A stretch of 64,000 bases of DNA from Marsupella aquatica (lineage: Eukaryota; Plantae; Marchantiophyta). Under the pieces are notes generated by a model that did not search any database, was not told the DNA's origin, and worked only from the letters and a program-made list of their open reading frames with translations. Shown here piece after piece: positions 39,388-64,000 of the stretch. A program made the translations under genes and the position numbers. The DNA lies in the NCBI GenBank assembly GCA_973895155.1, contig OZ316899.1, forward strand, positions 14,969,974 to 15,033,973. The letters run 5' to 3'. Numbering within the stretch: the stretch's first letter is position 1; the number at the start of each line of letters is the position of its first letter.

Positions 39388-39440
39388 TGTGATGCCTTGC
39401 CAGGGTCACGGAGTAATACCTTAGTCTAAAAAAATGGCCT
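39388..39440 (+). mobile_element. ~50 bp LTR 5'-end stub
   Basis: TGTGATGCCTTGCCAGGGTCACGG, then an abrupt join to inverted LTR sequence. Confidence 0.65.
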
Positions 39441-41022: not shown

Positions 41023-44000
41023 TAGCTCCCCAGTTAATTGTGAAGTGTCCCCGCGAACAACTTCATCTTCGTCCATATAGTATTTCTTGAGGCGGTCGTA
41101 ATGGATGCGAACTGGGTACACCTCTCCAGTAATGTTGGCCAATTGCACGGAGCCATTGGAGAACTTCATGGTTACTCTAAAGGGTCCTAACCAGCGAGTG
41201 TAAAGTTTAACTGGAAACCTATTATACCTACTGTCATAAAGTAATACAAGATCTCCTATGTGAATACTAACTGGTTTCAACTTCTTATCATACTGTTGCT
41301 TCATGGTATTCTGTCTATATTCTACTCTCTCAGCTGAAATCATTCTTGCCTCTTCTAAAGCTTCTAACCTATACTCTCGCTCCTTTAGGCTTTCCTCCTC
41401 TGAAGATCTCTCCTCAATTGTAACTTGAAATGTAGGAATCTCAAGTTGCATGGGTACCAGGGCTTCCTGCCCAAAGGTTAGGAAAAAACTTGTATGACCG
41501 GTAGTGGATTTATAGGCTAAATTGTAAGCAAAAACAGCAGCAAACAATTTATCATCCCAATCGAGTTTGTTCTGGGCTACATTTTTGTTTAATATTTTTC
41601 CTATAATTCCATTGGCTCGTTCTGTCAACCCGTTTGCCTTTGGGTGGTAGGGAGTAGTAGGCCTATGTCTAACTAAATACTGCTCATTTAAACGACTAAT
41701 TATATCATTCAGAAAATGGGTTCCTCTATCACTAACTAATTCTAAGGGTGCGCCATATATACCTGGTGAAGATCTGCTCATACATGAATCGAGCCGTAGT
41801 AATTGCATCATCCTTGGTTGTCGGCCTGGCCTCTACCCACTTAGTTGCATAATCCGTGGCCAAGATTATGTATTTGTTTTTTCGAGGGTGAGTCAATGGT
41901 TTCAGAGGTCCGATGTAATCAATACCCCACTTCTCAAATGGTGCCAGAGGTAGAATAGGGTGCAGTGGATGTCTTGTGGACGCCCTTGGTCCTCCCGCTC
42001 GCTGACAAGGATCGCATTGTTGGATAAACTTATAGACATCCTTGTGCAAGGTGGGCCACCAGTAACCGGCATTTAATATTTTTTTAGAAGTGGTTATTGG
42101 ATCGAAATGCCCCCCGGCCTCCTCTCCATGCATAGCTCGTAAGACTCGTTTTACTTCTCCCTCCTCCAAACACCTTTGAATCGTGCCACTGATTCCATGC
42201 TTGTGTAGTACGCCCTTAATGCACTGATACCGTCTAACCTTCCGTAGAAAGACTGTGGCTTGCTCTCGGCTTAGCCCTGGCTGTAATCTGGAAGTGCTGA
42301 GAAATCGTAAAACCTTAGGGTACCATTATCAGCTATTTCCACAATGAATAGCTCCTCGTCGGGAAATCGATCGTCGATGCAATCCGTGGCAGGTTCTCCT
42401 ATGATCCTTGAAAAGAAGTCGGCATTGGCGTGTTGCTTTCCCGGCTTGATTTTTAGCTCGTAGTCAAATTCCTGTAATAGCAAAATCCATCTTGCTACCC
42501 TGCCTGTAAGGTCCGGCTTATTTACTAGGTACTTCAAACTTTCATGATCAGTATGAAAGATTACCTTGTACCCTAGTAGATAATGCCTACACTTTTTACA
42601 TGAATAAATGACTCCTAATGCTTCTCTTTCTGTGGTGGAGTAGTTTTGTTTGGCATTGGCAAGCTGGCGGCTTGCAAAGTATATGGGATGGTCCCTTCCT
42701 TTCTCATCCAATTGACTTAGTACTGAGCCGATACAGAAGCCTGAGACATCTACAAAGACATGAAAATCCTTGTTCCAGTCTGGTGCTATCATGACTGGGG
42801 CCTCTACTAACATCTACTTCAATTCCACTACTGCTGTTACTCGTTCTGGTGTGGGTTTGAAGTCCACACCTGCCTTGAGCATGTTGGTTAATGGTAAAGC
42901 TAGCTTGGCAAAATCCTTGATGAACCGGCGATAATAACCAATGCACCCCAAGAAGGATCTCACATCTTTTATGTTCTTAGGTTGCATGATATCCAGCCAC
43001 ACTGCTAGCTTACCTTTGTCAATCTCAATGCCCTTCTTTGATACCTTGTGACCTAGTAGCACACCCTCTGTTACTCCAAAGAAACATTTATCGGGGTGCA
43101 ACTTGAGACCTACCTCTCTGCATCTCATGAAGGTTTTCCTGAGGTATTTAGCATGTTTCGATGCCTTCCCAAACACTGCAAAGTCATCAATGAAGATTTC
43201 CATGAATTTTCTCAAGTAGTCATGAAAAATGTTCACCATTAATCGTTGGAACATAGCTGGTGCGTTATAGAGTCCAAACGACATACGATTGAAGACATAG
43301 ATCCCCCATTCCGTGATGAAGGCTGTTTTGATTTGGTCCTCCTGCCTAATCCTGATTTGGTTATAACCAGAGTATCCATCCATGAATGAGTATAGTTCTT
43401 GACTGGCTACCATGTCTAACACCATATCAGTAAAGGGTAAAGGAAAATGATCTTTCAACGTAGCCTCATTCAACTTTCTGTAATCCTGACAAACACGGAT
43501 CTTGGGTTGACCATCGGGTCCAGCTTTCTTGGGTACTATCACAATTGGAGACACCCAGTCTGAATGCAGGACTGGAGTGATGAATCCGGCTTCCACTAGT
43601 TTATCGATTTCAGCCTTGACCATCAGAGAATACTTAGGGTTCATCCTTCGGATCGGTTGTCGAAATGATTTGGCCCCTAACATGAGATCGATTCGGTGTT
43701 CTCCTAGTTTTGGGTCTACTCCCTTCAGATCTTGGTGACTCCATGCGAACACATCCTGAAATTCAATTAGTAATTCACTGATCTCTTTCTCAAGCTCAGG
43801 TGCTAGGTCCCGCCCCAAGTTCAGTTCCCTTCCTTCTCCTAAGTCGAGCTTCCGGTATTGTCGTGCTTGGATCATATTAATCTGCTTCTTCAAATTCGGG
43901 TCCAACCCGGCCTCCAGCCTTTCCAGTCTCATACCTCTATAGACTGGAATCTCTGCGGTACTACCCAAATTGGTTGACTCGAGTTCTCCTTGGTTATTAA

Positions 44001-45497
44001 CAGATTGTTCCCTTACCGTTCTGTTTGGTTTTGAATTGGTTGGCGGCTCCCTTTCCTGACTCGGCTCTGGTTTCTTTCCGTGCATCTTATCTATTCCTGT
44101 TTCCTGAGGGTCAGGCCGTCGTGCTCTTCCGGCTTCTAGTAGGGCCTCAATTTGTTCTGCCCTTGTGATCGGCTTGTAAGCCGATCCTTTGGTATTTAAT
44201 TTGTTGCCGATGATAGACAGCGTTGTGGATCCCGTCGGCTCTGCCACAACGCCCGTGGAAAATCCACTGTCTCTGGTGTAGCTCCCCACCTAGCCGTTTC
44301 TAGCCGATCCGCCTCTTGTGTCTCCTCCGGAATTGAAGATAAAAATGTTGACTCTATGGCAAAACAATCCTCAGTCTCTTCTTCCCCTTCCTCCAGGTTA
44401 CTCTCCATAGGTTCGTGCCATAGTCCGCTGGGGGGTACTTCCAATCCAAACACACTTTCTTCGATTAGGTCAGTGAGGCATTCTAACCAACGTACTTCAT
44501 CGGCTGACTCGAGTCCACTGTCGTACCCATCTACTTCCCTGATGCTTTTCCTACACTCATCTTTAGTGTCCCAAGACACCGTGATAGAGGGGGTCCCAAA
44601 AGTGAACTCCTTCTTACCCCAATCTTCTATTACCTTGGCTAGGTACAGCCATGGCCTGCCAATTAATAGTCGGAACGACGTAGGATTTATTGGCTTCATC
44701 ACTACATAGTTAATGCTAAAGAAAATACCTCCTATCTCAGTCTTGATGCCGGTTAACACCCCCGTGGGAATGACTTGATACCCATTGGCCATGTTTAACA
44801 CTCTTCCAGTCATCTCCGGCGTTAGACCCCATCCTTTTGCTGTTGAATCAATCATAATACATACCCCGGATCCTCCATCAATGGGTACTCGCAGTAATAT
44901 TTCTCCTTGAATCATTAATGGTAATGCTGGGGCTCCTTGATCTTCTTCTATCATTAGCACATCGGATCTGGTTGCTACCTTGGGTAATCTCGGTTTGCCG
45001 AGAATCGCCTTCCTTAACTGCTTCCGGAAGTACGGGCTATTTTTCAATAGTTGACCTACGGTTGCCGAGACTCTAGATTCTAGCACATCCTTAGCCAGAT
45101 CATAGGGAACTATCGGCTTCTCTTCTGACGGTGTCTTCATCTTGGCTTCGGCCTGTTTCTTCACGCTGGTTTCCACAGCCGTTGGATCCTCAGAAGCAAA
45201 CAGTGCTTTTGCTCGTTCCACATCCTTGGCTATGGCTTTGGTATTCTCCAGGTTTTCTAATTCTTGCAGTTGTTCCTTAACACTAGCCGTAATAGCGGGG
45301 TAGAACAACTTAGGGTGATCTCGATTGAAATCGCTGTCCTGTGAAGGATTGGGGTCACTGGTGAGCTCATGGCTTACCTGTGTTGCCGGCGCCTTTCCTT
45401 CCCCTTCCGTCGATGTTGACAAAGAGTCGATCCTTTCTTCCTTATCCTTCCCTTTATTTTTGGCCAGCCCATCCCACCTTTCCTTCCTTCTAGTGGA
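41011..45497 (-). pseudogene. pol: pol: protease, RT, RNase H, integrase (stops and frameshifts)
   Basis: IDGGSG; WVSPIVIVPKK...CQDYRKLN...FIDD; FVDVSG...NYSTTEREAL; H-H-C-C, GIDYIGP, SDRG, NGLTER, WLGPF. TAG at 42814; frameshifts near 44290, 42320 and 41760. Confidence 0.95.
41023..41031 (-). promoter_or_regulatory. Short polypurine tract
   Basis: GGGGAGCTA immediately before the 3' LTR TG. Confidence 0.5.
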
Positions 45498-47186
45498 TCA
45501 AGTAGAGACCCGGTAGCAATCATGATCCAATTCTTCTTCTGAAAATGTTGATAAGGCCTCGGCCTCATCATCAGATGGTCCGAACTCTGCCTTGGCATCA
45601 GTTTGCCATCCGAGTTCGATGTGGTTGATTTGAACTCCTCCGGGGGTAGTACTTGGCGGTAAAACTTTGACTAGCAAGAGCTTATGATTTGCGGCCAGGC
45701 CTACCAACCAAGTAGGACATTGTCCTAGCATGTGACCCTCCTGTCGGCATCCCATACATAGCTGAGCTGGTTGTCCATCACCTTGTTTGCATGCATTTGG
45801 GCATTCTCTAGCAAAATGACCAGGTTGACCACAATTATAGCATGCCCCAAATCTTTGTACATTCGGTCTAGGAGGTACTGACGGATTCTGAATAATCCGA
45901 GGATACATCTCTCCCGGATTGTTCCTTAATCCTGACCAGAGAGATGCGGGTCGGTTGGATAGATCTCGTGCTCCAGTCTCACTGATGCCGAAAACACTAT
46001 CAGCGGCATCCCCTAAAAAGTACTCTACTTCTGCCTGACCTGGTCTACCCTCAGCCACATGCCGAACATGACTAGTATTAAGTTTAGGACACGCATCTTT
46101 ATGGTGTCCGGTTTTATAACATAAGGCACACCATACAGAGCTATCCTCTTGTACTGCCTTCTTCTTTGGTTTTACCTCTGCTATTATAGCCTTAAGCTGC
46201 TCGGTAAGGGCTATGATGTTATCTGGTGTTTTAGCCTCTAGTTTGACTTTCAACTTCCCCCTCCTTCTACCCTTCTTTTTCCTAGTTTGTTCTTCTTCAG
46301 AACTAGAAGATGACTCACTCTTGCTACTTCCACTATCCGAGCTTGAGTTATCACTTCTTGACTTCTTAGAATGTTTCTTTTTCTTATCTTTTTTCTTGTG
46401 GGGTGATCCCTCCTCCGATGAGGAACTCTCAGACTTAAGCTGTTTCTTCCGGCTTGTGATATCTGCATTAATGTATAATTCAATATCCTTAATTGCCTTG
46501 GTTAAAGTCTCTGGGTTCTCCTTCCTAATTGCAAAACTCATCTTCTGTGGCAAAGCATTTACTAACCATTGAAGTTGCATACCTTCAGATGCATTGGTCT
46601 TTGTACGTCTTACCAACTTTTGGAAGCGTTGCAAGAACTTCCTGAAGGATTTGTTCTCCTTGAACCGAAGTCGTCCCAACTTCAGCACTGCTAACTCTGA
46701 AGTTCCAATGGGTCGAAACTCCTTGACAAATAGTGATCTGAAAGTATTCCATATGGCTTGATCTTCCACATCCAAGGCTCTGTACCAAGGCCTAGCCTCA
46801 CCTTTGAACAGGCCGGGAAGAATTTGCATCTTGATGGCCGATTCTCCATTTGCTGCAGCAGTTCCTTCGAAGTCATCCAACCATTCGTCCGGATCCTCAT
46901 CTCCTCTACCATAAAAGGCCTTGTAATGAATGCGTGACCGTTGGCTCAGTCTGGTCCCTGGCCTCTCGTCTGGCCGCGCCTCTGGTTCCCCCATGTCGGG
47001 TGGAGACTCACTTCTCCTTACCGACCCTTCTTCTGGTATGTCTTCTTCGATGCCACTTTCAGTCATGGAGCTACTAGCTCTTTCTGCCCCTCTCAGTCGC
47101 TGTGTATCATGCCACCCGGCGAGCTGCTGCAGATGAGCTCTCTCCCGTTGAATTGCTCTTTCCTCCCTTGGTGTAGGTTCAGTCAT
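45498..47186 (-). CDS. gag: gag with three CCHC zinc knuckles
   Basis: FYGRGDEDPDEWLDDF...GEARPWY...W..FR..F; CYKTGHHKDAC, CYNCGQPGHFAREC, CMGCRQEGHMLGQC; in frame with PR across a single TGA. Confidence 0.92.
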   Translation of the reverse strand: MTEPTPREERAIQRERAHLQQLAGWHDTQRLRGAERASSSMTESGIEEDIPEEGSVRRSESPPDMGEPEARPDERPGTRLSQRSRIHYKAFYGRGDEDPDEWLDDFEGTAAANGESAIKMQILPGLFKGEARPWYRALDVEDQAIWNTFRSLFVKEFRPIGTSELAVLKLGRLRFKENKSFRKFLQRFQKLVRRTKTNASEGMQLQWLVNALPQKMSFAIRKENPETLTKAIKDIELYINADITSRKKQLKSESSSSEEGSPHKKKDKKKKHSKKSRSDNSSSDSGSSKSESSSSSEEEQTRKKKGRRRGKLKVKLEAKTPDNIIALTEQLKAIIAEVKPKKKAVQEDSSVWCALCYKTGHHKDACPKLNTSHVRHVAEGRPGQAEVEYFLGDAADSVFGISETGARDLSNRPASLWSGLRNNPGEMYPRIIQNPSVPPRPNVQRFGACYNCGQPGHFARECPNACKQGDGQPAQLCMGCRQEGHMLGQCPTWLVGLAANHKLLLVKVLPPSTTPGGVQINHIELGWQTDAKAEFGPSDDEAEALSTFSEEELDHDCYRVST

Positions 47187-47233: not shown

Positions 47234-47251
47234 CCCCTCCATCTAGCGCCA
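47234..47251 (-). promoter_or_regulatory. Primer binding site
   Basis: TGGCGCTAGATGGAGGGG after a 4-nt TTTT spacer behind the 5' LTR end; primer tRNA not assigned. Confidence 0.75.
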
Positions 47252-47255
47252 AAAA

Positions 47256-49372
47256 TGTGGTGCGTCCCCTACCTCTCCAAACCCAAGAAACCCCCTTGGT
47301 CAAGCCGATTCCCGCAGGTTTTATCCTTGGCGAGGCCGTTTCCGCAGTTTAGCGGCATGGGACGCTGCTAATCTATTATTAACATTTTACACACATATAC
47401 TAGACAGATCCTTCACCGGGTCATGAGATACTTAGCCGGCCTATTCTAGTCCCTCCCTTGTATTCCTCTCCTGGTCCTCCATTAGGTATATTTGGATTCC
47501 GCCGCCGGAATGATCCCCAATTGGCTTGGTTAAGCCGCTAAGACCTCTCTCAGCTCGACACATCCAACTCTCACTCCCCTGCTTATTTCTATTCCTCTAT
47601 TAGTTGATGTGGGCACTCTTCACACAAGTTAGTACGACACACAAATAGCAAAATGACTCCTTCTGACTGAGTTATACCATGCACTTGCCATACAAACAGT
47701 ACATCTCATACACAAGCTCTGCGAACTAAGCCGTGAGGCCAACTCTATTCAGATCTTAAGTATGAGGAAACATGAATATATACAAGGGTCACTGTATAAC
47801 TAACCGAGAGCTTCTCTTACTACTTGATCCCAGCCCTACTGGTGCAACTAAAAACTTGCTAAAGAAGAGGCCCTGAACTCCCCACAGCCCAGGTACTTAT
47901 CCTGGTTGTAGATCCGCCTGATTCCTTGCAGCGTAAGCCTAATCTACCTATTGTAATCTACCTAACTGTAATCTACCTAAGTACAGCGAGGTAGGAGCAC
48001 AAGTGTCGTCCACACCCGTGGATCCAAAATCCCACTAATCTAAGTGTCAGAGTTGTCTCCTGATCCTGATCCTAAGTCTAAACTTGGAGATCAGCGCCCG
48101 CCCTGCCCACTCACGCCTCCTACCTCCACGTCTGCCCTCCCTAAAAGGGACGGCGCCCTTACACCATCACGACACCGGTGGCTGGTCCTCAATGGACGCC
48201 CCCAACGCTTCCTCCGCAGCCACTGCCGTTGGTCCGTCCTCTGACAAATTACCTGCCCCTGACCGAGTCAACTCTTCATCGGCCTGACTGGGTCCACCCT
48301 CGGCTTTGGCCTCAGCATCGGTCACGGCCTCTACTACGGCTACGGTCTCTGCGGCATGTTCTAGTGGAGGACCTAGTACCTTGCCAGCATTATTGGTTCT
48401 CCCATCTTCGGCCTTGCCATCTTCACTTCCTAGGACTGGTGGATCCACTACCGTGCCGATGCCGGAGGTTGGTGCCGAGTTTATCTTCTCGGTCACAATC
48501 GCTTGAGAAGCCGTATAACTCCTAGACCTAGAAGGTTTCCGCTTCTTCTTCTTCCCTATTTCGACAGCCGGTTCCTTCCCCTTGCCACTTATCTCCAACA
48601 CCGGGGTGAGTGTTACGGCTTGTCCTTCGGCCAATACTACCCCTGGTAACTGGGTTCCACCAATTGGAGTTGGACCTGATGAAGCCAAGCATTTAAATAC
48701 TGCAGCTTGTGTCTTCAACCGCTCCGTTTGGTTGTCGGCCCGCCGCTGTAGGTTGTCCATCTTCCTCGTGATTTCCTCCAACTCCTCCTGGGTCTCGTCC
48801 AGGTCCTTGCGCGCCTCCTCCAGCTCCTTATTGGCTTCCTCCAATTCTCTTTTCAAGGTAACCCTCTCCTCCTGGGTTGCTCTTAGCTCCCTGTCGAGCT
48901 CTGCGATGACCAGACTCCATCTTATTCATCTTGGCATAAGTCTGGTCGAGCTGGTCGTCCTTTTCACGCAGGCCGGCCTTGAAGCTGGCCGCCAGGGACG
49001 CAAGCTCCTGCTGCAGCGCAATAATCCCTTGATAGGATTTCCCTAACTCTGCTTCCTTCTGCTCAAGGGCTCCGCGGATATCTTTGAGCTCTCCTTTCAA
49101 TGCCCTCTCCCTTCTCTAGTTCTCCGCCATGGCCCGATTGTTGGTTGCTAAGTGGGCTTCCTCTGCATCCCTTAGCTCCCGCTTCCATTTCTCTCTTTCT
49201 TTGACTGCGCCGGCCAACTCTCCTTGGGTCCGAGTCAGTTTATCTTTGATAATCTGATTGTCAGACTGAGTGGTATCCAACTGCCCCTGCATGATGTTTA
49301 GCTCATGCCGCTTAATCCGCACTCCTGCTTACCATGTAAACCGGGCTTAGATATTCCTGGCTAGGCATCACA
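47256..49372 (-). repeat. 5' LTR with ~2.5 kb internal deletion
   Basis: TGTGATG start at 49372 and ...GGACGCACCACA end at 47256; at ~49320 it jumps from LTR nt ~52 to the coiled-coil region (RIKRHELNIMQG). Confidence 0.88.
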
Positions 49373-49491
49373 AGAAAGAAAAGACAAGACGTGTTGACGG
49401 CACTTTAAAAGAGTACTCTAGTAAGCACATTAGATCTGAAAAACAATATGGATTTGAATCTTTAAGTCTTTTCATTTTGACTTATGATTAA

Positions 49492-52400
49492 TGTGATGCC
49501 TAGACAGGAATCACTCGGCCAGTTAAGTGGGTAAAGCAGGAATGCACCCTGGAAACATCTTAGTATAGGGACAAAACAAGGAAAATATAAACAATTAGGG
49601 GTGACTATGGAACCCGGGCCGAGGCCGGAGGTAAGGACGCTGGGGGTGAAAACTCGATTAGGGTTAGGGCGCGTTAAGCGTCGGCGGCTAGGAAGGATCA
49701 ACGGGAGGAAGGACCGGAAGAGGAGAGGGGTAAGGAGCGCTTGCAGGAAATGGTGGCTCATTTGCGAGCACGAACTAGGCAGACGACTACAGGAGGCCAA
49801 CTACTGTCAGCTGCTTAGGCAAGCACTCGGGGAGAGAATAGATACCGATGATTGACGTAAGGAGGGTATGAGCAACGTCAATCAAGCGGCACATTTCTGG
49901 GGATGCCTGTTCGAACGGGCAACTGAGTACATCAAGACTTACGAGGACAAGGAATCAGAAAGGGCAGCTCGAGAACGGCAGGAGCTCGCTCGATTGTGGG
50001 AGCTGCAGAAGATAGCTTTCTTAGGAGGCGAACTCATCAAGGACGAGTTCTTGTGGACTCCTACTTCCAATCAGCTCGACGATCTTCTGTTTTGCAAAGA
50101 CAGCGTCGTCAGCATCCGAGAGGCCATCAAGAACTGCAACGACATACACTGGGAATTGAAGGGTAGCACGGAAAGGTGGACCCAGGCAACGGTGCTAGGA
50201 GAAACCTCCACGGCAGCAGAGATGAAGAGGAAAGGAGCCATCAACGATGAAGCCACCCCGACAAAAAGAACGAGGTCGGCGACACCAAAGAAGCCAGCCG
50301 AGCAGCAGAGCAGGAGGCAGGGAGAAGCCGAAGAGGAGGAGGTCGATCCCATCAAGGCCATTCCAACCAGGGATGACACCTGGAAAGGCTGGGCGGCAAC
50401 CCTACCGGTAGAGGCGCAACTACATTTTGCACGGGAGGAGGATGCATGCTTTACGGCCATGCAGACCAAGAAGTACCAAGGCTTCATGGCCGGATCCGGC
50501 TTAGAGGCCTTTGTAAGATTACCATGGCTGAAGCCGGAGGTGCCGGATTCAGACCTATTAGAATTCGTGGGGTCATGGGAACCCGAGACCAATTGCACGA
50601 GGATATATGGGAAGGATTTCTATCTTACTCCCAAGGTGATTGCCGATAGGCAATAAGACCAAAGTTGATACCAGAAAGACCTTGCCTGACAAGGAGTTCC
50701 GGTCGTTCCCCGGGCCATCAACGAAGAATGGCTTCTTCCGGAACACCTGCACCAACCCGCACATAGGAGAGATGATCGACTTCTTGAGGGTGACCATGCA
50801 CGGTAACTTGCCGAGGGCAGAGATCGGCAAGGCACAGGTCTATCTGGCAGAGAGGCCAGACCCAAGCCGGGACTACAACGGGTACCTCCTCAACCAATTG
50901 AAGAAGATCTTAAAGGAGGAGCAGCAGGTAATCGGCATGGGGAGCATGTCGCGGCTTGGCTATCACATGCCGCTGTTGTGCCGGTATGCCAGAGGTCAGA
51001 CCTTTGCCCCAGTACTTCCCCTGCAGGTAAGGGCACCCGAGGAAGCTCCAGCACCGAGGCCGGTAGCAGAGAAGCCTCAACCACCTGTTAGCCCTACGAT
51101 CGAGCAGGTGTTTAGGCCAAGGAAGGAAGACTTGCCGATGCAGCAACCAGGCATGCAGAATCTGCTGAAACTACTGGAGAAAGAAAGATCGGCATCGGCA
51201 ACGACAACGGCAATGGCAACAATGCAGGACACTACTCCAGAGGTAGGCCTACACCGGCTTACAAGGGAAAACCCCTTTACTAGAGACAAGGAGAGAATCG
51301 GGCCAGAATCCAAGCCGGGTGTTCGAATGTACGTGGGAGTCTCAAGCTCTGAATCTGAGGCAGAATTGCCTGAAGTTCCTACCGACGAACAGGAGAAGGA
51401 GAAGCCGGAAGTCCAAGAAGTAGAGGAGGCAGTGGAGGACGGCAGCCATGATAACTCCGACTATGGGTCGGACCATCACGTTCCAGGAGTAAGGACCTGT
51501 GGCCGGTTTATCCCCACACTTCCAAGGGTAGTACGAGGGGACCCCAACCAGCAAAGTAGCCCTGAGTCTCCCCCACCAGATGTTGCTCCCCCGAGCTTTG
51601 ACGGCATAAAACAGACGGCGCAGGAATTTTAGGAGCGAATCAGGCAGGAAGAGGAGGCAGCCCTGGCTAGAGAAAAGGATTTTCCAGGAGGAGATTGGCC
51701 GGAGGACATCAAGCGGCTAGCCGAAAAAGGAAGCAAACCTCTAGCCACGATTGAAGAGATCCGCAAGACGGCTTGGGAGCAGAGGCCGCGATGGATGATG
51801 CCGATGACTTCTACTTCCTCCACCTATGCTAAGGACAGAGCCATGGAGTACGGGGAGATGTGTGGAGAACTGGCGCTCAACATATTTGGGGAGGAGTTGG
51901 AGCAGGGACCCTTTTTCCAGAGGGAGATGTTGGAGAAGCGTCAATTAGAAGAAGCGGTGGCCTTGGAAAGAAGCAAGAAGGACGAGGTCATCCGTCGGCT
52001 TAGGGAAAGGGAAGCCAAAATCAAGGACCTGAGGGTGGCCAAGAAAGCCCAAGATGAGCTGCGGATTAAGCGGCATGAGCTAAATATCATGCAGGGCCAG
52101 TTGGATACCGCACAATCTGATAATCGGGTGATCGAGAATCTACTGACGCGGACCCAAGGAGAATTGGCCGACGCAATCAAAGAGAGGGAGAAGTGGAAGC
52201 GAGAGCTGAGGAATGCAGAGGAGGCCCACATAACAGCCAACAGCCGGGCCATGGCGGAGACCCAAAGAAAGGAATGGGCATTGAAGGGGGAGCTCGAGAA
52301 AATTCGCTGAGCCCTTGAGCAGAAGGAGGCCGAGTTGGGGAAATCCTATCAAGGGATTATGGTGCTGCAACAGGAGCTTGCGTCCCTGACGGCCAGCTTC

Positions 52401-54167
52401 AAGGCCGACCTAAGGGAGAAGGACGAGATGCTCGATCAGACTTACGCCAAGATGAACCAGATGGAGTCTGTCATCATTGCAGAGCTCGACAAGGAGCTAA
52501 GAGCAACCCGAGAGGAGAGGGCTACCTTGAAGAAAGAACTGGAGGAAGCCCACAGGGAACGGGAGGAAGCCCAAAAGGAACTAGAAGAGGCGCGCAAGGA
52601 CCTGGATGAGACCCAGGAGGAGTTGGAGGAAATCACGAGGAAGATGAAGAACCTCCAGCGGCGGGCCGACAACCTAATAGAGCGGCTGAAGAAACAAGCC
52701 GTAGTATTTAAGTGCTTGTCTTCATCAGGCCCAACTCCAATTGGGGCAACCAAGTTACCAGGAGTGGTACTGGCCGAAGAACAAGCCGCGCCACCTGCAC
52801 CAGTGCCGGAAGTAAGTGGGAAGGGGAAGGGACCAGCTGCCGAACCAGAAAAGAAGAAGAAGCGGAAACCTTCAGGGTCAAGGAGTAATCCGACTCCACA
52901 GGCCGTGGTGACCAAGGAGGTAGACCCAGCACCAACCTCCGGCATGAACACGGCAATAGATCCCGCTATCATCAAAGGTGGGGATGGTGCGGCCCAAGCC
53001 AAACTACTCAGTAATGAGGCCGGTATCCCAGATCCGCCTCTTAAGCAGGCCGGGGAGACCGTAGCCGAGGCTGAGGCCGTAACCGAGAATGATTCCCAAG
53101 CCGATGCCGATGCCGATGGTGGACCCAGTCAGGCCGATGGAGAGTTGACTCAGTCAAGGGCAGGTAATCTGTCAGAGAACGAACCTACGACAGTGGCTGA
53201 GGAGGAAGCGTTGGGGGCGTCCATTGAGGATCCACCACCGGTGTTGTGACGGTACAAGGGTGCCGTTCCTTTTAGGAAGGGCGGACGTGGAGGGAGGAGG
53301 CGTGAGTGGGCAGGGCGGGCGCTGATCTCCAAGTTTAGACTTAGGATCAGGATCAGGAGATGACGCTGACACTTAGATTAGTGGGATTTTGGATCCACGG
53401 GTGTGGACGACACTTGTGCTCCTACCTCGTTGTACTTAGGTAGATTACAGTTAGGTAGATTACAATAGGTAGATTAGGCTTACGCTGCAAGGAATCAGGC
53501 GGATCCACAACCAGGATAAGTACCTGGGCAGCGGGGAGCTCAGGGCCTCTTCTTTAGCAAGTTTTTAGTTTGCACCAGCCGGGCTGGGATCAAGTAGTAA
53601 GGGAAGCTCTCGGTTAGTCATATAGTGACCCTTGTGTATATTCATGTTTCCTCATGCCTAAGAGCTGAATAGAGTTGGCCTCACGGCTTAGTTCGCAGAG
53701 CTTGTGTATGAGATGTACTGTTTGTATGGCAAGTGCATGGTATGACTCAGTTAGAAGGAGTCATTTTGCTATTTGTGTGTCGCATTAACTTGTGTGAAGA
53801 GTGCCCACATCAACTAACAGAAGGAAGGAAAGTAAGCAGGGGAGTGAGAGTTGGATGTGTCGAGCTGAGAGAGGTCTTAGCGGCTTAACCAAGCCTATTG
53901 GGGATCATTCCGGTGGCGGAATCCAAACATACCTAACAAGACGGAGGGGAAGACAAGGGAAGGCCTTGATTAGGCCGGCTACGTATCTCATGACCCGATG
54001 AAGGATCTGTCCAGTATATGTGTGTAAAATGTTAATAGTAGTAGTAGAAGGTTAGCAGCGTCCCATGCCGCTAAGCCGCGGAAACGGCCTCGCCAAGCGC
54101 GAAACCTGCGGGAATCGGCTTGAGCTGGGGGGTTTCTTGGGTTTAGGGAGCCATGGGACGCACCACA
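49492..54167 (+). mobile_element. Complete 4,676 bp solo LTR with 5-bp TSD ATTAA
   Basis: ATTAA|TGTGATGCC ... GCACCACA|ATTAA; both ends match the LTR ends flanking gag-pol. Confidence 0.95.
49607..53249 (+). pseudogene. Full-length LTR-encoded ORF (~1,220 codons reconstructed)
   Basis: Pieces 49607-49855, 49868-50645, 50640-51632, 51795-52310 and 52335-53249 join across three single stops and a 17-bp deletion between TTGCCGA repeats. Confidence 0.85.
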
Positions 54168-54172
54168 ATTAA

Positions 54173-55339: not shown

Positions 55340-55497
55340 TGAGCCCCTTACATGTCATTGGCTCCTTTACATGAGCCCCTTGCATGTCACTGGCTCCCTT
55401 ACATGTCATTGGCTCCTTTACATCAGCCCCTTACATGTCATTGGCTCCTTTACATGAGCCCCTTGCATGTAACTGGCTCCCTTACATGTCACTGGCT
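55340..55497. repeat. Subterminal minisatellite (CCCCTTACATGTCAYTGGCTCC units)
   Basis: About six TACATGTCAYTGGCTC-type copies with a higher-order period. Confidence 0.85.
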
Positions 55498-56189
55498 GAG
55501 TACATTAGTACTCTCCACCCTTGTGTGCGGGAGCGAAAGTTTAAGGTCTTTGTCTGCAGAGAGGGTTTAGCGAGGGGAAGGGAGGGGAGGGGAGGAGGAG
55601 CGAATGAGGTGACTATCGATAGTCGATAGTTGATTGATCAAGGAGGGAGGAGGAGCGAATGAGGAGTGTGTCGGGATTTCTTCTCGCTACCACTCTTACT
55701 AGAGCTTTTAGGAAGGCGGAAGTGTTTACGACCACACTTGAAGCGCAACGGCAGCGATTTTCAGTCGAGTGCTAAGTGCGAGAGCGAGTGCTCCCCGAAG
55801 GCATTGCGGGGGCATTGCGGTCAGTTATTTTAGGGTCGGAGCATAAGTTTGTGGTGTGGGGGTCCATCTTCCGCCATCTGCTTTGTAAGTACTTACCTCT
55901 GACTTTGCCATGCGCAGCATTGGAATGGAGCTTTGCATGTCTGCTATCACAATGCTTGCTCTCGGTAGAAAGTGACAATGCGCAAATGCGCCCTAGACTT
56001 ACTCTTTGCCTTGCGCGAAGCCTTGTTGTGGTCATGGTAGTCATCCAACACCTCTACAAAGTTGAGCTGCGGTGCTGGTCATCTCCGTCTCTCGGTAGGG
56101 TCTGATTGCTGCTATTGCCTTGCTTTCTTTCTCTTTGATATGCTACGGTAGGGTTAAGTTCTACTGGGTTCCCTGAGTTCTACAGGGTT

Positions 56190-57762
56190 TCCTCTCTTGC
56201 TCAATTCTCTCCTCGCTCTCTCTCGCCCTCTCTCTCGGTCTTGCTCATCCATCGTCTCCGCTCTCCATTGTCCTCTCTCCTGCAGATTTTCTCACTCGCG
56301 ATCCTCAAGTACGTACAAAATCTCTCCCTCTCTTATGCACGCCCATCACTATAGCAATCTGAGGTCGGGGCCGGGGTCAAACTTGGATTTCACTATGGAA
56401 ATGTAGATCAAAGTATATTGTCGGCACTTTCATTCTGCTTTGGCTGTGAAGCTTGAATCCCCACCATCCTTATACACTAATATTCTAGTGTGCGAAAGTG
56501 TTGTGCAGAACTAAGGTGGGGTGCGGGGGGTTTTTCTTTGCCTTTGCTGAGCTGCGATTTCAACTCAACGGTCCTGTATTCCATGTACAGGACATTAGTC
56601 AAATGTGATACTCTATAATGTACTCCTCCATGGACAACAGATGAGCCACAGAATTGATGAGCCACACTCTGTCTGTGGCACTCGCAGATCAATTTTCCAC
56701 CCATTCGAGAGCTTTCTCTTTTGCCAAGCTAGGCACAAAGAAATCATTCCAGGGTTTCTCAACTCCTGAGGTCTGCAATCACTCAGAGCCCTCTGCATTG
56801 TCATTGCTTTGTCTTCACTGGTGGTCTCAGGGTCAGGCATTTGTGCTGCCATTGCCAATATTTTAATTTGCTGCTTGTAGACTCGCATGTTTGCTTCAAT
56901 ATGCTACTCTACAACTAAGTTCTATTGGGTTCTTTGACTTGTGAATTCCTTTATTCAACTGTGAAAATGCTAGCCCAACAATTGTCCACTTTTATTCTAC
57001 ACAATCTTTCAGGATTAGCAATCGAGTGTCCAATCTTAGAGTCATGGGTCTTCTCGCACGTCTGTACCAGCTTTGGTTTGACTACTTCAACACTGAGCAG
57101 AATTTTCTCCTTGCTTAATTCTCTCCTTGCTCTCTCTCCGTCCGTGTGTCTCTCTCCACTTTGTCAGTACTCTGTTTGTTTGTCTTTGCTCACCATCATC
57201 TTCTCTGCTGCAGAATTCTCTCTCTCTCAATCCTCAAGTATGTACAAAAATCTCTCCCTCTCTTATGCATGCCCATCACTATAGCGATCTCAGGTCGGGG
57301 CCAGGGTCGAGCCAGGATTTCACTATGAAAGTGTAGATTGGATCATAGTATAGTGTCGGCACTTTCATTCTGCCTCGGCTGTGGAGCTTCAATTGCTCTA
57401 ATGTCATATACTAGTATTCTAGTGTGCGGAAGTGTTGTGCAGAACTAAGGTGGGGTGTCGCGTTTGTGCTGCCATTGCCAATATTTTAATTTGCTGCTCG
57501 CAGACTCGCATGTTTGCTTCAATATGCTACTCTACAACTAAGTTCTACTGGGTTCTCTGACTTGTGAATTCCTTTATTCAACTATGAAAATGCTAGCCCA
57601 ACAATTGTCCACTTTTATTCTACACAATCTTTTAGGATTAGCAATCAAGTGTCCAATCTTAGAGTCCTGGGTCTTGTGGCACGTCTATACCAGCTTCGGT
57701 TTGACTACTTCAACACTAAGCAGAATTTTCTCCTTGCTAAATTCTCTCCTTGCTCTCTCTCG
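56190..57762. repeat. Interleaved internal duplications in the CACTA-B leader
   Basis: ~56190-56525 matches ~57110-57457; ~56838-57135 matches ~57463-57762. Confidence 0.8.
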
Positions 57763-58246
57763 GTCTGTGTGACAAGACAAACCAATTTACGGGATGTGGT
57801 GGATAGGATGTTAAGGCTGGGTTGGGTTGATAGGGTAGGGGTTATTTGGGATATTTGATTGGATTTTATGTTTGGGGCGTCGATTGTATTCTACTGGCCT
57901 TCTTGCTGTGCTGAGCAATGTCCTGTTGTGGACTTTTGAATTCTTCTGCTGGTTCCCCTTATTTTCGTGGCCCCCAAAATTTATAAAAATTAATGTGTGA
58001 AAATGCTAGCCCAACAATTGCCCACCTTTAATGGCAGAAATCGTTCAGTAATTGCCTGTGTACAATCTCAGGGTCCTAAACTTAAAATTTCCTCCATGCA
58101 CACAACCCGTCTTGAATTTACAACTTGAAATTACAGTTTCTCAAATCTTTGGTATTAATTCATAGTTTTAGTTTCTCATTCCTTGCATGCTTCACTACGT
58201 CACTGACTCTGGCCATATTGTGTTGTTTTCTATCGGGGTAGAAGTC

Positions 58247-58969
58247 ATGGCTCGTCCAAAACGGCCAGCACACAGAGGCGGATCACAGGTGAGGCACAAT
58301 TCCATGAGTAGACATCATCATTGGTCCAATGCACAAATTCATCATAAAGCCGCTCATGTCTGTGCCATTTGTGATGATGGAGGTGACCTGGTCATGTGTG
58401 ATGGCCCCTGCCTGAGACAATTCCATGTCAATTCCTGGTCCACTTACGCACCACAAAATGCATGCCCTGGGGCTGGGCTCCGGGGGGACCATCGGGGTGC
58501 TTGGACTTGCTTTGATTGTGCCACTAATATCAGCAAGTGTGCTCAATGTGGCACAAACGACACTGTTGGGGGGGATCAACCAGAGCTGCGGAAATGTCCT
58601 GACAGGTTTTGTGTTCGTTTTTTTTGTTTGACATGCCTGCCCCATGATAACTCTCTTTGCCCACTACATATTTGTCCTGCTTGTGGGGAGCCTGATGATG
58701 ACTACTGGATAGACATGGTCCATTGTCCCAGATGTCCCACGGCCTGGCACCATGAGTGTTTACTAGCCCTTCAGGCAGAAGGGTATGCATGTGACCGCCA
58801 AATTTATTCCCACTTTGCACACGGGGTTGATAGGTGGTTTTTGTATTGCCACCTCCATACGATTGACCCTCATTTGCAGACCCCTGCGAGAGACCACTTG
58901 ACTTGGCTATTGCTGGATGACACCTCCAGCGCCAGCAACAAAACAAGTGGATCAGCACCAACAGGCTGA
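58247..58969 (+). CDS. Multi-PHD-finger protein, EDM2-type (CACTA cargo)
   Basis: MARPKRPA...VCAICDDGGDLVMCDGPCLRQFH...CPLHICPAC...CPRCPTAWHHECL...FLYCHLHTIDPHLQTPARDHL; intact ORF. Confidence 0.88.
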   Translation: MARPKRPAHRGGSQVRHNSMSRHHHWSNAQIHHKAAHVCAICDDGGDLVMCDGPCLRQFHVNSWSTYAPQNACPGAGLRGDHRGAWTCFDCATNISKCAQCGTNDTVGGDQPELRKCPDRFCVRFFCLTCLPHDNSLCPLHICPACGEPDDDYWIDMVHCPRCPTAWHHECLLALQAEGYACDRQIYSHFAHGVDRWFLYCHLHTIDPHLQTPARDHLTWLLLDDTSSASNKTSGSAPTG

Positions 58970-59872
58970 GCTAAATGAATCCAACATTGCACATCTCACA
59001 TTTTGGACTTTTTAATGAAGTGGGCACCTCACTGCGCTGTCAACCATAGCTCAGAGACACCCCGCTGCAGTGAGCTATTGATCGACTTTGTGACTGCATA
59101 GTAAATTTGGATCTTGCTTTTTCAGTTCAGCCATACATGGTTCTGTCCTTATACTTTCGTACACGATGACACCTCCAAAACTAACTAAGTTAACTTATTT
59201 TTTGAAGACTGATTAAGTTAATTGCAATTTCAAAGTTAGGGCCTGCACAAGGATGTCTGTGTTTTTTCCACTTTGAGTGAATCATGTGTATGGTAAGAGA
59301 CCATAACTGTGAAAGACTAAAGATTCCAAGCAGACTGTTGCCTGGAGTAAAACAACATGCATGCATTGGAGTATGAAAATACATATATAGCTCAAATTAT
59401 GTATTTGTTTCTGCTCTTAACAAAGGTCATCTTAAGTCGTGTGCCTGACCCATACATTTGTACAATTACAGATGTGACTGGAAATTGGGCAGTTGAATGA
59501 TATCATTCTCAGTCCCCACCATTGTCACGTAAGATACAGGTATTCGAATGTGAATTCAGCCTATATGCAAACAAGACAATATAAAGGGCCACATGTATGC
59601 TATGTGTATACTGAAGTAGGCTGTCGCTCTACTTTCATCAATGTAATTACATGAACACATGGTGAAACTAATTTGACTGAAGAGTATATGGTTTGTCCTA
59701 TAACTCCGTGCTGGGATTTACTGCATGTATTGACTTTTGATCCTGTCATGTGGGCCACAATCAGGGAGCTAGAGTGCACTTTGTGTCATCAAAGAGCATT
59801 GGGCTGAAGCATTGAGGGGCAGGCAATGTGGGCACTGGTATTTCTCTATTGGCTTTTATTACAGGAGGCATC

Positions 59873-60799
59873 ATGCCTTCCAAACGGAAGCGTGAACCTG
59901 TCCCCCTTCCAACTTCCCAGTGTGCTCCCATCTTCCAAGGGGTCAGAGTCTTTTTTGTCCCAGGTATTCAGAGTGCAAGATTGGATATCCTTAGGAGAAA
60001 ACTCATTGAGTGTCACGGTACACAGATACAATCTCAACTACAGGACACTGAAGTCACCCATATTATTGCAGAAACATGGGAACATTGTCTGAAAATGGCA
60101 TCTTGGTCGGTTTTCTATGACAAAGTCTTCTTGAGGCATGTCAAAATACTTTCAGCAGAATGGATGTCTGACTCCCTTAGAAAAGGGAGTGTCCAAGATC
60201 CTGATGATTATAATTTGTTTGAGAGCAAGTACAATAGCGTCCAAATGATGAAAGACAGTCGAGATTGGCACAAGGCTTGTAGAATTGCAGGGAGCGGTGG
60301 GAGTAGGGTTCCGTCTATTGACCAGATCACAAAAGTATACAACAACATTATCCCATATGAGACAGAACCCATCCCAGACCGTACCATGTTCAGAGGTGTG
60401 AGGGCTGTTATACTTGACAAGTCTATCAAGCCATATAGGGTCTGTCATTTCAAGAGGGAGATCAGTAGAAGAGGTGGTACAATGATTGAGAAGCTCACTA
60501 ATGAGACCACCCATCTCATTGCTCATTCATATTCTAAGGCATGCCGAGAGTATGGAAAGTCCACAGTACGATGGCTCATCACACATGGGCTGCGTGTGGT
60601 CTACCCTGAATGGGTCAGGCAGTCACTTTCAACAAATATGCGATTAGATGAGCATAAATATGATTTATATGAAATATGGCCAGCAAAGCCATTCATTCCC
60701 TATGACGACCCAGAATATGTTACTTCTGAGTTCCAGACCACGGATGAAGAGTTTTCTGATAGTGCGTATGATTCTGTTAGCCCTAATGATTATGAATAA
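59873..60799 (+). CDS. Tandem-BRCT protein (CACTA cargo)
   Basis: MPSKRKR; IFQGVRVFFV...VTHII...SAEWMSDSL; MFRGV...RRGGT...TTHLI...YPEWVRQSL; intact ORF. Confidence 0.87.
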   Translation: MPSKRKREPVPLPTSQCAPIFQGVRVFFVPGIQSARLDILRRKLIECHGTQIQSQLQDTEVTHIIAETWEHCLKMASWSVFYDKVFLRHVKILSAEWMSDSLRKGSVQDPDDYNLFESKYNSVQMMKDSRDWHKACRIAGSGGSRVPSIDQITKVYNNIIPYETEPIPDRTMFRGVRAVILDKSIKPYRVCHFKREISRRGGTMIEKLTNETTHLIAHSYSKACREYGKSTVRWLITHGLRVVYPEWVRQSLSTNMRLDEHKYDLYEIWPAKPFIPYDDPEYVTSEFQTTDEEFSDSAYDSVSPNDYE

Positions 60800-61162
60800 G
60801 GTCTCAACTGTCTGTATGCTAGATGGTTACATTTTTGAAATAAACTTTTGTGTGTTATTTTTTGTCTACAAGACATTACTCCTTTTCATCCTCCAAATGT
60901 CTTGGTTTTGCATGTGGAGATGTATGGCAGTGTATGATGTACGTTGTACCATTGACTGGTCAACGACCAAGCACTTCACTGATTATAGCAAGTCTGTTAT
61001 GATGTTGCTGCCTGCAGTGAGCAGATGATACGTGAGCAGGTCGGGCGCCAGCACAGAGTGGACTTGATAGTGAGTGTGTTTAGCGTTTGTGATATGTCCT
61101 TCATGAAACTTGCATGTGTCCCCTCCATGTACTTAGAATATGCAATTGTATAAGCGTGTCTA

Positions 61163-64000
61163 GTGCAAAGGGTACATAGCCAAGGGGTGCCTACAACAGC
61201 TGAAGGTATGGATCAAGCAAATGAGGATGGACAATTGGGGCAAAGGAATCAGAGACATACCAATGAACTGCGACTCCCTTTGCATCACCCACTGAGGATT
61301 ACACGTCATGACTCCAAGTTGTGGAATAGAGAGGTGCTTAGAGCAAGCCGGGGCAGAAATGCCCGGATGAGATGCCCCTGCATGCAATGTCAAGGATACC
61401 ACTCGATGACCCTGAACCAAGTGCATTCTCATCTTCAAAGGCATGGAAGACATCCAATCCGCAGGGTGTGGAATGTGCCAGAGGAAGAGGATTGATTGGA
61501 TGATGAATGGAGAGCAGATTTTGAAAATGTGAATACAGCAAGACGCTCTGCATTCTTTCATAACGTCACTGGTCATGCAGGCAACAATGCCGAAGATGAG
61601 TATGTTCCACAGGGAGGTCCCGAGACTTCTAATGAGGATGGGGCAGATGTTCCTAGGATGGTTTCGGACATTTTTCAAGACCTGGATGCACTTTATGAAG
61701 ATGCAGAGGCACAGGGGGACGAAGAACCAGACATGCAAGGTGCAGATCCATCGGACCAAGAAGAGTTTGACATTGGAGAAGGAGCTGGAGATGATGGTCA
61801 ATTCTTGGGAACTCGGGCCTACTTGGAGGAAGCTACGTCCCCATTGTATGGTGGTGCAAATTGCTCCAAACTAGGGTTCATAGTGATGTTCCTCAATATA
61901 TGTGGATGTCACCTTGTGCCCAACATATGTGTAACAGAGTTGTTGATGTTCCTACAGAGGACAGTACTACCCGCTAGAAACATTGCTCCTAAGAACATGT
62001 ATGAGGCAAAGAAGGTGATGAGCAAACTTGGTTTGAATTATGTGTCCATCCATGCATGCCCAGATGGCCATGTACTTTTCAGAAAAGAATATGTTGATTG
62101 CCTATCGTGCCCTATCTGCGGAAAGCACAGATATAAGAACGTGGGGAAGTCAACTCAACCTGCTAAGGTCCTACGGCATTTCCCTCTCATTCCAAGATTG
62201 CAGCGCCTCTATAGGTGTCCATCCATTTCTAAGATGATGACTTGGACCTCTGATCAGAAGAGTACAGATGGTTTGCAACATCACGTTGGAGATTCCAACC
62301 ACTGGAAGTACATAGATGAGAAGTGGCCGGACTTTGCAGCAGAGAGCAGAAATGTGAGGTTTGGTCTAAGCCTTGACGGTGCTAATCCTTTTGGAGACAA
62401 GAACAACGTGTATTCTTGCTGGCCAGTGACTTTGATAAATTATAATCTCCCGCCTTGGATATCCACCAAGCGTTTTTTTGTGATCTTGTGTCTTATGATT
62501 CCCGGCCCAAACTCTGCTATAAGTGCAAACATAGATGTTTGGTTGGCCCCTGCGGTGGAGGAATGGGTTACTCTATGGACACATGGAGTTATGACAGTTG
62601 ATGCACTTTGTGGACCTGGTAGACCGAGGACATTCGACCTACGTGCAATGTGTGTTAATTCAATAGCAGACTACCCTGGACATAGCATGATATCTGGGCA
62701 GGTAGGGAAGGGATATCTGGGTTGCACATGATGTGGCCCAGATGTTACATCTGAACAGTCCGTTTCCTTGGGCAGTATCAAATTCCAGGGCCACAGGCGA
62801 TATCTTCCTGCCGACCACCCTTTCAGGCACAGGCAATCCCACATAGCCCGCTTCAACAACCAGAGGGAGCTTTGAGAGTCTCCTGTGTTGGTTAGTAGAG
62901 ACCAACTTCTGCAGTGGGGACTGAACAAGGTGTCTTATGATGAATATGGTGCTTGTAGAGACGTGCCAGACGACCCAGCAAAGACTCATGGCATCAAAAG
63001 GCAGACAATGATGAACACATCATTGGAGTATTGGAAGGTAACATTTGCATATTCACTTGTACTCAGCGAACCTCTTCAGATCCTATGCACAACAGTTTTT
63101 AGTTCTTGTGTCTGAACCTAATTGTGGCAATCATGCGTACTTCATGGGTGCAGGATTTTGAGCCAAGCAAACATAACATTGATGTAATGCACATTGAGAA
63201 GAATGTATGCAAAAGTCTTTTGAAGTTTCTGTCGGGGGACAACGATACTGCAGCAGTACGAAAGGACCTTCAGGAGAAGGGCATTCGTCCTCAACTTTGG
63301 CTGCAAGAATCCCAGAATAGGCCGGGTGTGGTTTTCAAGGACCAAGCTCCATATGTTTGCACCCAGAACGAGTGGAACATAGTTTTGTCTAGGCTGAGTT
63401 CGTTCAGAGTACCCTCTGGGTACGCTAGAGCCTTTGCAAAGCATATAAGGAAGAAGAAGTTGGGAAGCATGAAAACTCATGACTTCCATGTTATGATGCA
63501 AGACATTCTACCAGTATGTCTGAGGGGATTGATGCAAAACCCAGTTCGCAATGTCATTTTGAGACTGTGTCAGATCTTTCGTCGTATTTGTGTGAAGGTG
63601 TGGGACCCTACAACATTTCCTCAGTTAAAGGCAGATACTGTGCGTGTGCTTTGTGACTTGGAGATTTATTTCCCTCCAGCATTTTTTGATGTCATGACTC
63701 ATTTGATCATCCATGCGGTTGAAGATCTAGGCCACTACGGCCCAGTGAGTACAAGGTGGATGTATCCGATGGAACGGTACATGAAGTTGCTAAAAGGCCA
63801 TGTACATACTTATTACAGGCCTCAAGCAAGCATGGCTCTTGGTTACATTCAAGAAGAGACCTTGGGGTTCCTTACAGAGTACATGGCTGGTGTAGATAGT
63901 GTTAGGAGCAGGGTGTGGGATGCTGAGGAAGAAGAGGGGGTGGCTGGAGAGGTTCTTCAAGGCGCTTTTACTTCCTTGCAATTGTCTGCAGAAGTTCGTG
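61163..64000 (+). pseudogene. CACTA TnpD transposase of B with in-frame stops
   Basis: RMRCPCMQC; RNVRFGLSLDGANPF; MKTHDFHVMMQ; RWMYPMERYM. Stops at 61493, 62729 and ~62873; intron ~63038-63152. Confidence 0.93.

Follow-up and report, generated by a model that had tools for sequence, protein, structure and literature searches.

Can a plant retrotransposon carry a selected gene inside its long terminal repeats (LTRs), and what might such a gene do for the element? The question is raised by positions 49492-54167 (forward strand) of a 64,000-nt stretch of contig OZ316899.1 from the liverwort Marsupella aquatica, the stretch being referred to here as the window, in which a first-pass annotation had described a long LTR filled mostly by one open reading frame (ORF). 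Plant LTRs are treated as non-coding, and in the accessible sections of two surveys the extra ORFs of plant elements are placed in the internal region (PMC7264820; PMC6317226). The available part of one of these describes non-chromovirus LTRs of up to about 5 kb and mentions no genes in them (PMC6317226), and our literature search, carried out mostly outside subscription journals, found no description of an ORF inside a plant LTR. Here, a selected gene of some 1,100 codons lies in one. The reading that we regard as probable is that the core of its product has a fold of the VANC/plant mobile domain (PMD) type and binds a short word characteristic of its own family, A[AT]GCCG, to keep the family active against silencing or to activate it.

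A gene under purifying selection within a solo LTR

The sequence at 49492-54167, hereafter copy A, is the solo LTR of a Ty3/gypsy retrotransposon. It is 4,676 bp long, begins with TGTG and ends with CACA (TG..CA termini), and lies between ATTAA target-site duplications (TSDs) at 49487-49491 and 54168-54172. Public contigs show the empty site, skipping copy A (joints 49486/7 to 54168-70; three of the four runs compared), and in three contigs of one public run (X2) the LTR end at 54167 is joined to position 47255, on the primer-binding site (PBS) side of a sister element described below. The empty sites concur with the exact boundaries that had been claimed from the TG..CA ends, the ATTAA duplication and the adjacency of PBS and polypurine tract (PPT) in the sister element. 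Internal direct repeats were sought in copy A and none were found, so that it contains no short LTRs and is not a small element with such LTRs; a short-LTR or non-autonomous element with an internal ORF, named beforehand as the layout that would contradict the claim, was thereby ruled out, and the LTR was found to be long instead. Summed contig depth is higher for the LTR than for gag-pol, a figure that is not a copy number and was not used as evidence.

An open frame at 49607-53249, in sense with gag-pol, covers 77.9% of the LTR, which confirms the share of about 78% noticed at first. The location of the ORF in the LTR stands, but the proposed start at LTR nt 116 (49607) and the length of about 1,220 amino acids had to be revised. 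Codons 1-85 of this frame have a ratio of nonsynonymous to synonymous substitution rates (dN/dS) of about 1.5 in LTR copies B and E of the window, on just 11 and 34 differences, the upstream ATG is out of frame in copy E, and in copy F, the diverged unit G and two related proteins (P0136 and P0148) homology starts at the methionine equivalent to 49868. On these observations the start at 49607 was rejected; the gene most likely starts at 49868 and comprises about 1,130 codons (49868-53249, forward strand), or 72% of the LTR, the first 87 codons of the longer frame being probably non-coding. The 5' leader (49492-49867), which includes the ATG at 49607, is probably non-coding and a candidate promoter of the LTR gene, and the 3' non-coding part (53250-54167) is likely to hold the poly(A) site and the R and U5 regions.

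In copy A the gene is dead, with one frameshift (a 17-nt deletion near 50639) and two stops, at 51630 and 52308; a further stop at 49853 interrupts the longer frame. Most of these lesions had been said to be absent from the other copies, and each site is indeed open in at least one of them: 49853 in copies B and E, 52308 in C and D, the deletion site in B, E and F, and 51630 in copy F, which alone covers the site and reads through it.

Substitution patterns show that the LTR gene has been under purifying selection and not evolving neutrally, the other outcome that would have spoken against the ORF. Pairwise dN/dS of copy A against copies B, C, D and E is 0.38, 0.37, 0.37 and 0.29 (634, 507, 379 and 477 codons, respectively), with bootstrap upper limits of 0.42-0.64, and as the compared copies are decayed these values overstate the true ratio. 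The core (codons 256-480), with dN/dS of 0.16 and 0.12, is the most constrained part of the protein, and the acidic tail shows little constraint (1.05 and 0.56). Differences between copies A and F fall 113/87/231 by codon position, synonymous sites being saturated, and indels within the frame are triplet-sized.

Predicted fold of the protein and a word enriched in its family

From its amino end the protein comprises an N-terminal helical domain (49868-50200), a VANC/PMD-like core of about 215 residues (50366-50996, delimited with a hidden Markov model and split by the frameshift in copy A), a long acidic linker, a coiled-coil region (about 51940-52700), the basic patch KKKKRK (52851-52868) and an acidic tail. 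The N-terminal domain is common to F, G, P0136 and P0148; its model (pLDDT 70) has generic helical-bundle matches only, with Z scores up to 6.6, which allow no assignment and are not evidence of a new fold. The coiled coil and the KKKKRK patch reported in the first-pass annotation are both present, the former predicted by a composition scan (coiled-coil Pfam matches are sub-threshold only) and the latter, a candidate nuclear localisation signal, kept in copies C and D. An env-like membrane protein was ruled out (top 19-residue hydropathy 0.73). Where a nuclear accessory protein encoded in the LTR had been proposed, the selected accessory gene in the LTR is upheld, and the protein is likely to be nuclear, judging from the basic patch and the lack of a hydrophobic membrane stretch.

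A full HMMER scan yielded 34 relatives, none with a relevant Pfam family; the named representatives, three among the 15 looked up, are all from the liverwort Calypogeia fissa. The core alignment has 30 rows, namely 28 relatives and two window copies, with six of the 34 relatives left out (P0135, a repeat artefact, P0136, P0146, P0148, P0152 and P0154). Word-indexed homologue searches and a sequence search of the PDB returned no matches, a viral structure library gave none at E 0.001, and in a metagenome scan with the core domain none of the 138 pattern matches held up.

The core of copy B was modelled with AlphaFold2 (pLDDT 87, pTM 0.85). Among 48,161 solved chains, that of VANC21 in complex with DNA was the sole one with a Z score of at least 5 (Z 8.6, root-mean-square deviation 4.0, 207 residues aligned, 8% identity; next 2.2), and it is also the top row of a Foldseek search (TM score 0.48, E 0.76). 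The core is thus predicted to have a VANC/PMD-type fold, by a match that is specific but modest. According to the accessible parts of two sources, VANC and the PMD proteins MAIN and MAIL1 share a fold (PMC13547354; bioRxiv 10.1101/2024.09.27.615353), and the earlier impression of a PMD is therefore right at the level of the fold. A further link runs through one of the metagenomic and other related loci (given L-numbers here): the core profile matches the ORF of L006 (independent E-value 5.8e-6), which in turn matches Transposase_32 weakly (E 2.5e-4). Atlas leads for the protein were Transposase_32 and ATHILA (0.87-0.91). The likeness to PMD and Athila extra-ORF proteins thus holds as kinship, by way of the VANC21 fold and stepping-stone relatives, but not as a direct Pfam match to PMD or Transposase_32.

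VANC proteins are described, in the part of the source available, as binding short motifs that have built up in the element encoding them (PMC5735166), and for this reason a family word was sought in the element of copy A. The hexamer AAGCCG is conspicuous in copies A and F and occurs 10 times vs. 4.3 expected in the sister gag-pol (p 0.008); the word was chosen on copy A and, after those results, widened to A[AT]GCCG. Compared to synonymous shuffles, the widened word is found 22 times vs. 6.7 in the ORF of copy A, 9 vs. 2.8 in copy F and 17 vs. 6.1 in the sister gag-pol (0 of 1,000 shuffles in each case), and its enrichment survives these shuffles on both strands. It makes up 13-17% of CCG sites in the family (27/165, 13/77 and 17/132 in A, F and the sister gag-pol) vs. 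2-3% in unit G (3/163) and the rest of the window (13/461), a family-only share that speaks against a genome-wide mutation bias. Relatives have words of their own, TCCGGA in L004 and L016 and AATTGG in L006. When 33 pol regions were put to a corrected Markov test, only those of these three loci passed.

Several observations on words stand beside this comparison. Extreme, element-wide enrichment of TCCGGA was seen in L004 (164-6148 and 6148-7517) and in the whole of L016, where CCGGA accounts for 37-41% of CCG sites with CpG at expected levels, and AATTGG is enriched in both the pol and the ORF of L006. The top hexamers in pol of the Athila-type loci L010, L079 and L018, which have Transposase_32 ORFs, share a CAAAG/TCAAG core (0/120, 2/120 and 7/120), possibly a word of their own.

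Lineage and the position of the gene beyond the polypurine tract

The sister element lies on the reverse strand to the left of copy A. Its 5' LTR (copy D, 47256-49372) keeps both termini and has lost LTR nt about 55-2568, and its 3' LTR (copy E, 39436-41022) is cut off after LTR nt 1570. The PBS (47234-47251), four nucleotides (four T) past the LTR end, begins TGGCGCTAGA, which we take to be of tRNA-Arg type; no tRNA genes were found in the window. Between the repeats lies a decayed gag-pol (41011-47186) in the order GAG, zinc knuckle, protease, reverse transcriptase (RT), ribonuclease H (RH) and integrase (established with Pfam, where protease is weak at E 0.29 and rve sub-threshold, and tblastn). 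The RH is directly continuous with the integrase zinc finger, leaving no additional RH (aRH), and the frame closes 12 nt inside the 3' LTR. The PPT, with a conserved upstream motif (41023-41058), overlaps the end of pol, and the first bases of the 3' LTR follow directly at 41022.

The nearest named RTs are those of Calypogeia (65-68%) and Riccia (60%), with elements of flowering plants at about 35-52%. In a quick tree the window RT groups with the Calypogeia RTs (support 95) in a clade of 22 rows (91), apart from a 23-row angiosperm clade (100) that we labelled Athila-type from host names and PF20167 ORFs, the tree being built without curated reference elements; three distant RTs from phage-type contigs served as outgroup only. 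With no aRH, a 5-bp duplication and a primer site that differs from the one usual in Athila, the element exactly fits no lineage profile in the REXdb table (PMC6317226).

The gene lies inside the LTR, in the same layout as in copy A, in copy F, unit G and L004. In L004, which has an Athila-like PBS, the same PPT motif follows pol, the terminus after the PPT is a perfect 9-bp inverted match to the terminus before the PBS, and the ORF begins 514 nt inside; for L016, homology and LTR position are judged from the PPT motif and from visual inspection. The homologous ORF of L006 (3631-5296) is internal, between pol and the best PPT motif, and a weaker PPT-like motif was also noted upstream of the ORF at about 3367. 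Among 28 post-pol ORFs from 19 loci, nine from eight Athila-type loci pass the Transposase_32 cut-off, and in L032, where both LTRs are seen, a PF20167 ORF lies clearly between pol and the 1.15-kb LTR. The simplest reading is that, in one bryophyte clade, an internal accessory cassette of Athila type crossed the PPT into the LTR, a direction that rests on one long-branched relative and the quick tree. The gene would accordingly be a homologue of the Athila-type extra ORF that lies between pol and the PPT in relatives, found here beyond that PPT motif, within the LTR. As separate observations on post-pol ORFs, the Athila-type loci L024 (5087-5524), L029 (8366-8953) and L044 (3734-4240) carry a Viral_NABP/carlavirus nucleic-acid-binding ORF after pol, behind which L029 and L044 have an ORF of the lysine-decarboxylase/LOG family.

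With Athila (non-chromovirus, OTA; ATHILA PF03078, Transposase_32 PF20167) the element shares the Ty3/gypsy order, the lack of an aRH, a 5-bp TSD and an accessory ORF that follows pol in sense orientation and encodes a related domain and a coiled coil. It differs in that the Athila extra ORF lies between pol and the PPT, whereas that of copy A is beyond the PPT, in the LTR, with the PPT overlapping the pol end; in its PBS, which is unlike those for tRNA-Asp or tRNA-Asn found in Athila; in its RT, which falls outside the angiosperm Athila-type clade of the quick tree; and in the LTR-borne protein, which is longer, has the extra N-terminal domain and lacks a membrane stretch. The Tat/Ogre/Retand elements have an aRH, which is absent from the sister element. 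The moss and lycophyte non-chromoviruses Phygy and Selgy resemble it in a polyprotein that fills almost the whole internal region, with no internal extra ORF; as described in the accessible part of the source, they have 4-bp TSDs, Trp/Ala primers and lengths of 4.4-10 kb (PMC6317226), whereas the element of copy A would measure about 15.6 kb and has a 5-bp TSD (as seen in A and G).

Proposed mechanism, alternatives and the other units of the window

In the mechanism we propose, coiled-coil oligomers of the protein would bind dispersed words, lowering methylation or activating transcription, as VANC does for VANDAL transposons. Since the gene lies on the LTR side of the PPT, reverse transcription would copy it to both LTRs, and each solo LTR produced by LTR-LTR recombination would retain it. 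If intact, such an LTR would then amount to a self-sufficient gene that acts in trans, served by a promoter of its own at the left LTR end and by the LTR poly(A) signal. The claim that the gene is left in every solo LTR holds for the frame, which does stay behind, but not for a working gene, all seven units in the window being broken or partial.

VANC of the VANDAL Mutator-like DNA transposons (DUF1985; VANC21, PDB 9LNJ/9LNK) resembles this protein in its core fold, as predicted here, in having a coiled coil and, apparently, in that the element encoding it is rich in a short word peculiar to the family. It is encoded by a DNA transposon, whereas the present gene belongs to a gypsy LTR of a bryophyte, and its product has 8% identity and no DUF1985 match; an anti-silencing activity is suggested here by analogy. 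The accessible text of one paper calls VANC dicot-specific (PMC13547354). The PMD proteins (PF10536; gypsy PMD-A and host MAIN/MAIL1/MAIL2) fall into the same fold group by way of VANC, with no PF10536 match here; PMD-A is carried by gypsy elements, as far as the available part of the source goes (PMC5418596), and extra ORFs with a PMD typically occur in the aRH-bearing Ogre elements, none being described inside an LTR in the literature surveyed. The location itself has parallels among retroviruses. Mouse mammary tumour virus (MMTV) has sag in the U3 region of its LTR, and nef and the bel ORFs of foamy viruses overlap U3. Such genes, too, end up at either end of the element and persist in solo LTRs; compared to MMTV sag, the protein of copy A is unrelated, three to four times longer and found in a plant retrotransposon with no env.

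Several findings weigh against this proposal. Pfam gives no direct match to DUF1985, PMD (PF10536), ATHILA or Transposase_32, and profile-profile comparison is weak for eight Transposase_32 ORFs (hhalign probability 3.6%, E 0.012) and modest for the L004 ORF (42%, E 2.6e-4). A Z score of 8.6 at 8% identity barely exceeds the best-hit background of 7-8 stated for the tool, and the Foldseek E-value of 0.76 for VANC21 is not significant. PMD proteins act in silencing too, according to the accessible part of the source, so that a shared fold shows no function (PMC5418596). The word is not enriched in unit G (2 vs. 2.1), although G has the gene. A blind family-wise test was failed by the sister gag-pol (18/120) and by G (42/120) and passed by one of 12 other pol regions (L010); it skipped eight of 23 pol regions for having more than three stops, and its null is slightly lenient because it comes from the same 120 shuffles that set its means. 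As a 6-mer scattered for the most part through coding DNA, the word also differs from the targets of VANC, which the available part of the source describes as 8-9-mers in tandem arrays in non-coding DNA (PMC5735166). The window holds no element with two whole LTRs, copy D being internally deleted and copy E truncated. In contrast to G, L004 and L016, copy A lacks a canonical TATA box close to where the gene begins.

The position of the promoter is a question that leaves function aside. We lean towards a gene in U3 with its own promoter over a position in R or U5. As a secondary but quite possible arrangement, a single LTR promoter may be followed by a very long R (or U5) that contains the gene, with transcripts that end at the 5' LTR poly(A) giving the accessory protein and read-through giving genomic RNA, which is compatible with either function. 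The TATA-like boxes that precede the gene in G, L004 and L016 would suit this arrangement, as would the lack of a clear TATA box in the 3' non-coding part of copy A. However, conservation within the LTR is highest over the 3' 900 bp (LTR nt 3759-4676 are 95% and 93% identical to copies C and D, vs. 93% and 82% in the ORF), as expected for a genomic promoter, R and U5, and a 4-kb leader with a 1,130-codon ORF ahead of gag would presumably require splicing or internal initiation.

Other explanations concern what the protein does. It is conceivable, though unlikely, that the same LTR gene with the same DNA-binding fold serves the replication cycle, by tethering the integration complex to the word and so steering new insertions towards older copies, by importing or organising cDNA, or simply by activating transcription. 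Proposals of this kind exist for extra ORFs (PMC7264820), the word enrichment would fit equally well, and members of the family are found nested in or next to one another (B in C, an F-type LTR in F, and A 119 bp from the 5' end of the sister element). Nesting is expected in repeat-dense regions, however, and copy A itself sits in an AT-rich stretch outside family copies and unit G in other DNA; moreover, the sole solved relative is an anti-silencing factor. It seems improbable that the protein lost, or never had, DNA specificity and acts as a scaffold built on its coiled coil or as a protein of the particle; the word would then reflect mutation or codon-pair bias. Weak sequence links and the mixed outcome of the blind word test (failed in the sister gag-pol and G, passed in L010) would agree with a scaffold, and Athila-domain proteins are modelled as coiled-coil pentamers in the accessible part of one study (PMC13547354). 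On the other hand, the core domain is the most constrained part of the protein, and the word survives synonymous shuffles on both strands and is family-specific within one genome, with G having similar CpG content and no enrichment. A passive cargo, be it a captured host gene, a nested DNA transposon or a neutral frame, can be almost dismissed, being already largely refuted by the selection result. All window copies are broken, and PMD and VANC domains do occur in Mutator-like elements, but dN/dS between subfamilies is well below 1, indels in frame are triplet-sized, the ORF keeps the same position in F, G and L004 despite large DNA divergence, no inverted or direct repeats flank it, and its homologues follow pol in L006.

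Returning to the proposal of a word-binding anti-silencing or activating protein, its fold and family word would answer, directly and in a form that can be tested, the long-standing question of what the extra ORFs of Athila type are for; in the available part of a 2026 paper, anti-silencing ORFs of retrotransposons are named as an open question (PMC12844716). Solo-LTR recombination, the main removal route of the host, becomes a route that keeps the accessory gene. If the proposal is true, sequence-specific anti-silencing extends from DNA transposons of eudicots to retrotransposons and to early land plants. A broader version, which we put forward tentatively, is that of a bryophyte gypsy clade with VANC-like self-recognition in the LTR. 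Each family would co-evolve a DNA-binding protein with a short word of its own, CG-containing or otherwise, placed at synonymous sites throughout the element, and solo LTRs would go on working in trans as anti-silencing genes that protect the family even when the host has removed the remainder. VANC and PMD would in that case go back to an anti-silencing function that predates flowering plants and belonged originally to retrotransposons; the 'env-like' ORFs of Athila would be cousins of VANC/PMD. Annotation tools that mask LTRs, limit LTR length or seek ORFs only between LTRs would miss such genes.

The window holds further LTR units. Copy B (1-2047, reverse strand; LTR nt 1-2027, 95% identity), the source of the modelled domain, is inserted at the 2047/2048 junction into copy C (2048-4488, forward strand; LTR nt 2201-4676, 92%) at LTR nt 2201, in opposite orientation. 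Copy F (36585-39387, forward strand) belongs to a subfamily that has diverged to 58% DNA identity and shares both the terminus and the gene, whose ATG in F is at 36937. It is interrupted at 39387/39388 by a further F-type LTR start, which is joined about 48 bp on to the truncated copy E. CpG is less strongly depleted in the family of copy A (0.59-0.75) than in other repeats (0.30-0.53), a comparison confounded by age. A tandem repeat with a period of 15 (2.7 copies, 53437-53476) in the conserved 3' non-coding part of copy A, repeated in copy D (47940-47980), is a candidate cis-element.

Unit G is a 4,547-bp insert at 21500-26046 (reverse strand) with a 5-bp duplication, CATCT; its ends were set by an empty-site joint, and the empty site was found in two public runs. 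It has the same gene layout (ATG 25566, core 24675-24086), with the N-terminal domain, the core domain and the coiled coil, and is likely to be the solo LTR of a third, highly diverged family, although no internal region ties it to a PBS. A TATA box lies about 110 nt upstream of its ATG, a tandem duplication of about 245 bp is present in its coiled-coil end (22728-23214), and TTAGC occurs 10 times in its non-coding ends, which is not significant after correction. An element of about 350 bp with long inverted ends, resembling a miniature inverted-repeat transposable element, is inserted in it at 21604-21957, with an empty-site joint in run X2.

To the right of copy A there are complex tandem arrays and short direct duplications (55340-55497 and 56157-57771). 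Another long coding repeat, strongly CpG-depleted, is present in two diverged copies (67-70%) in opposite orientation, at 5093-7216, 10407-10981 and 58343-63966.

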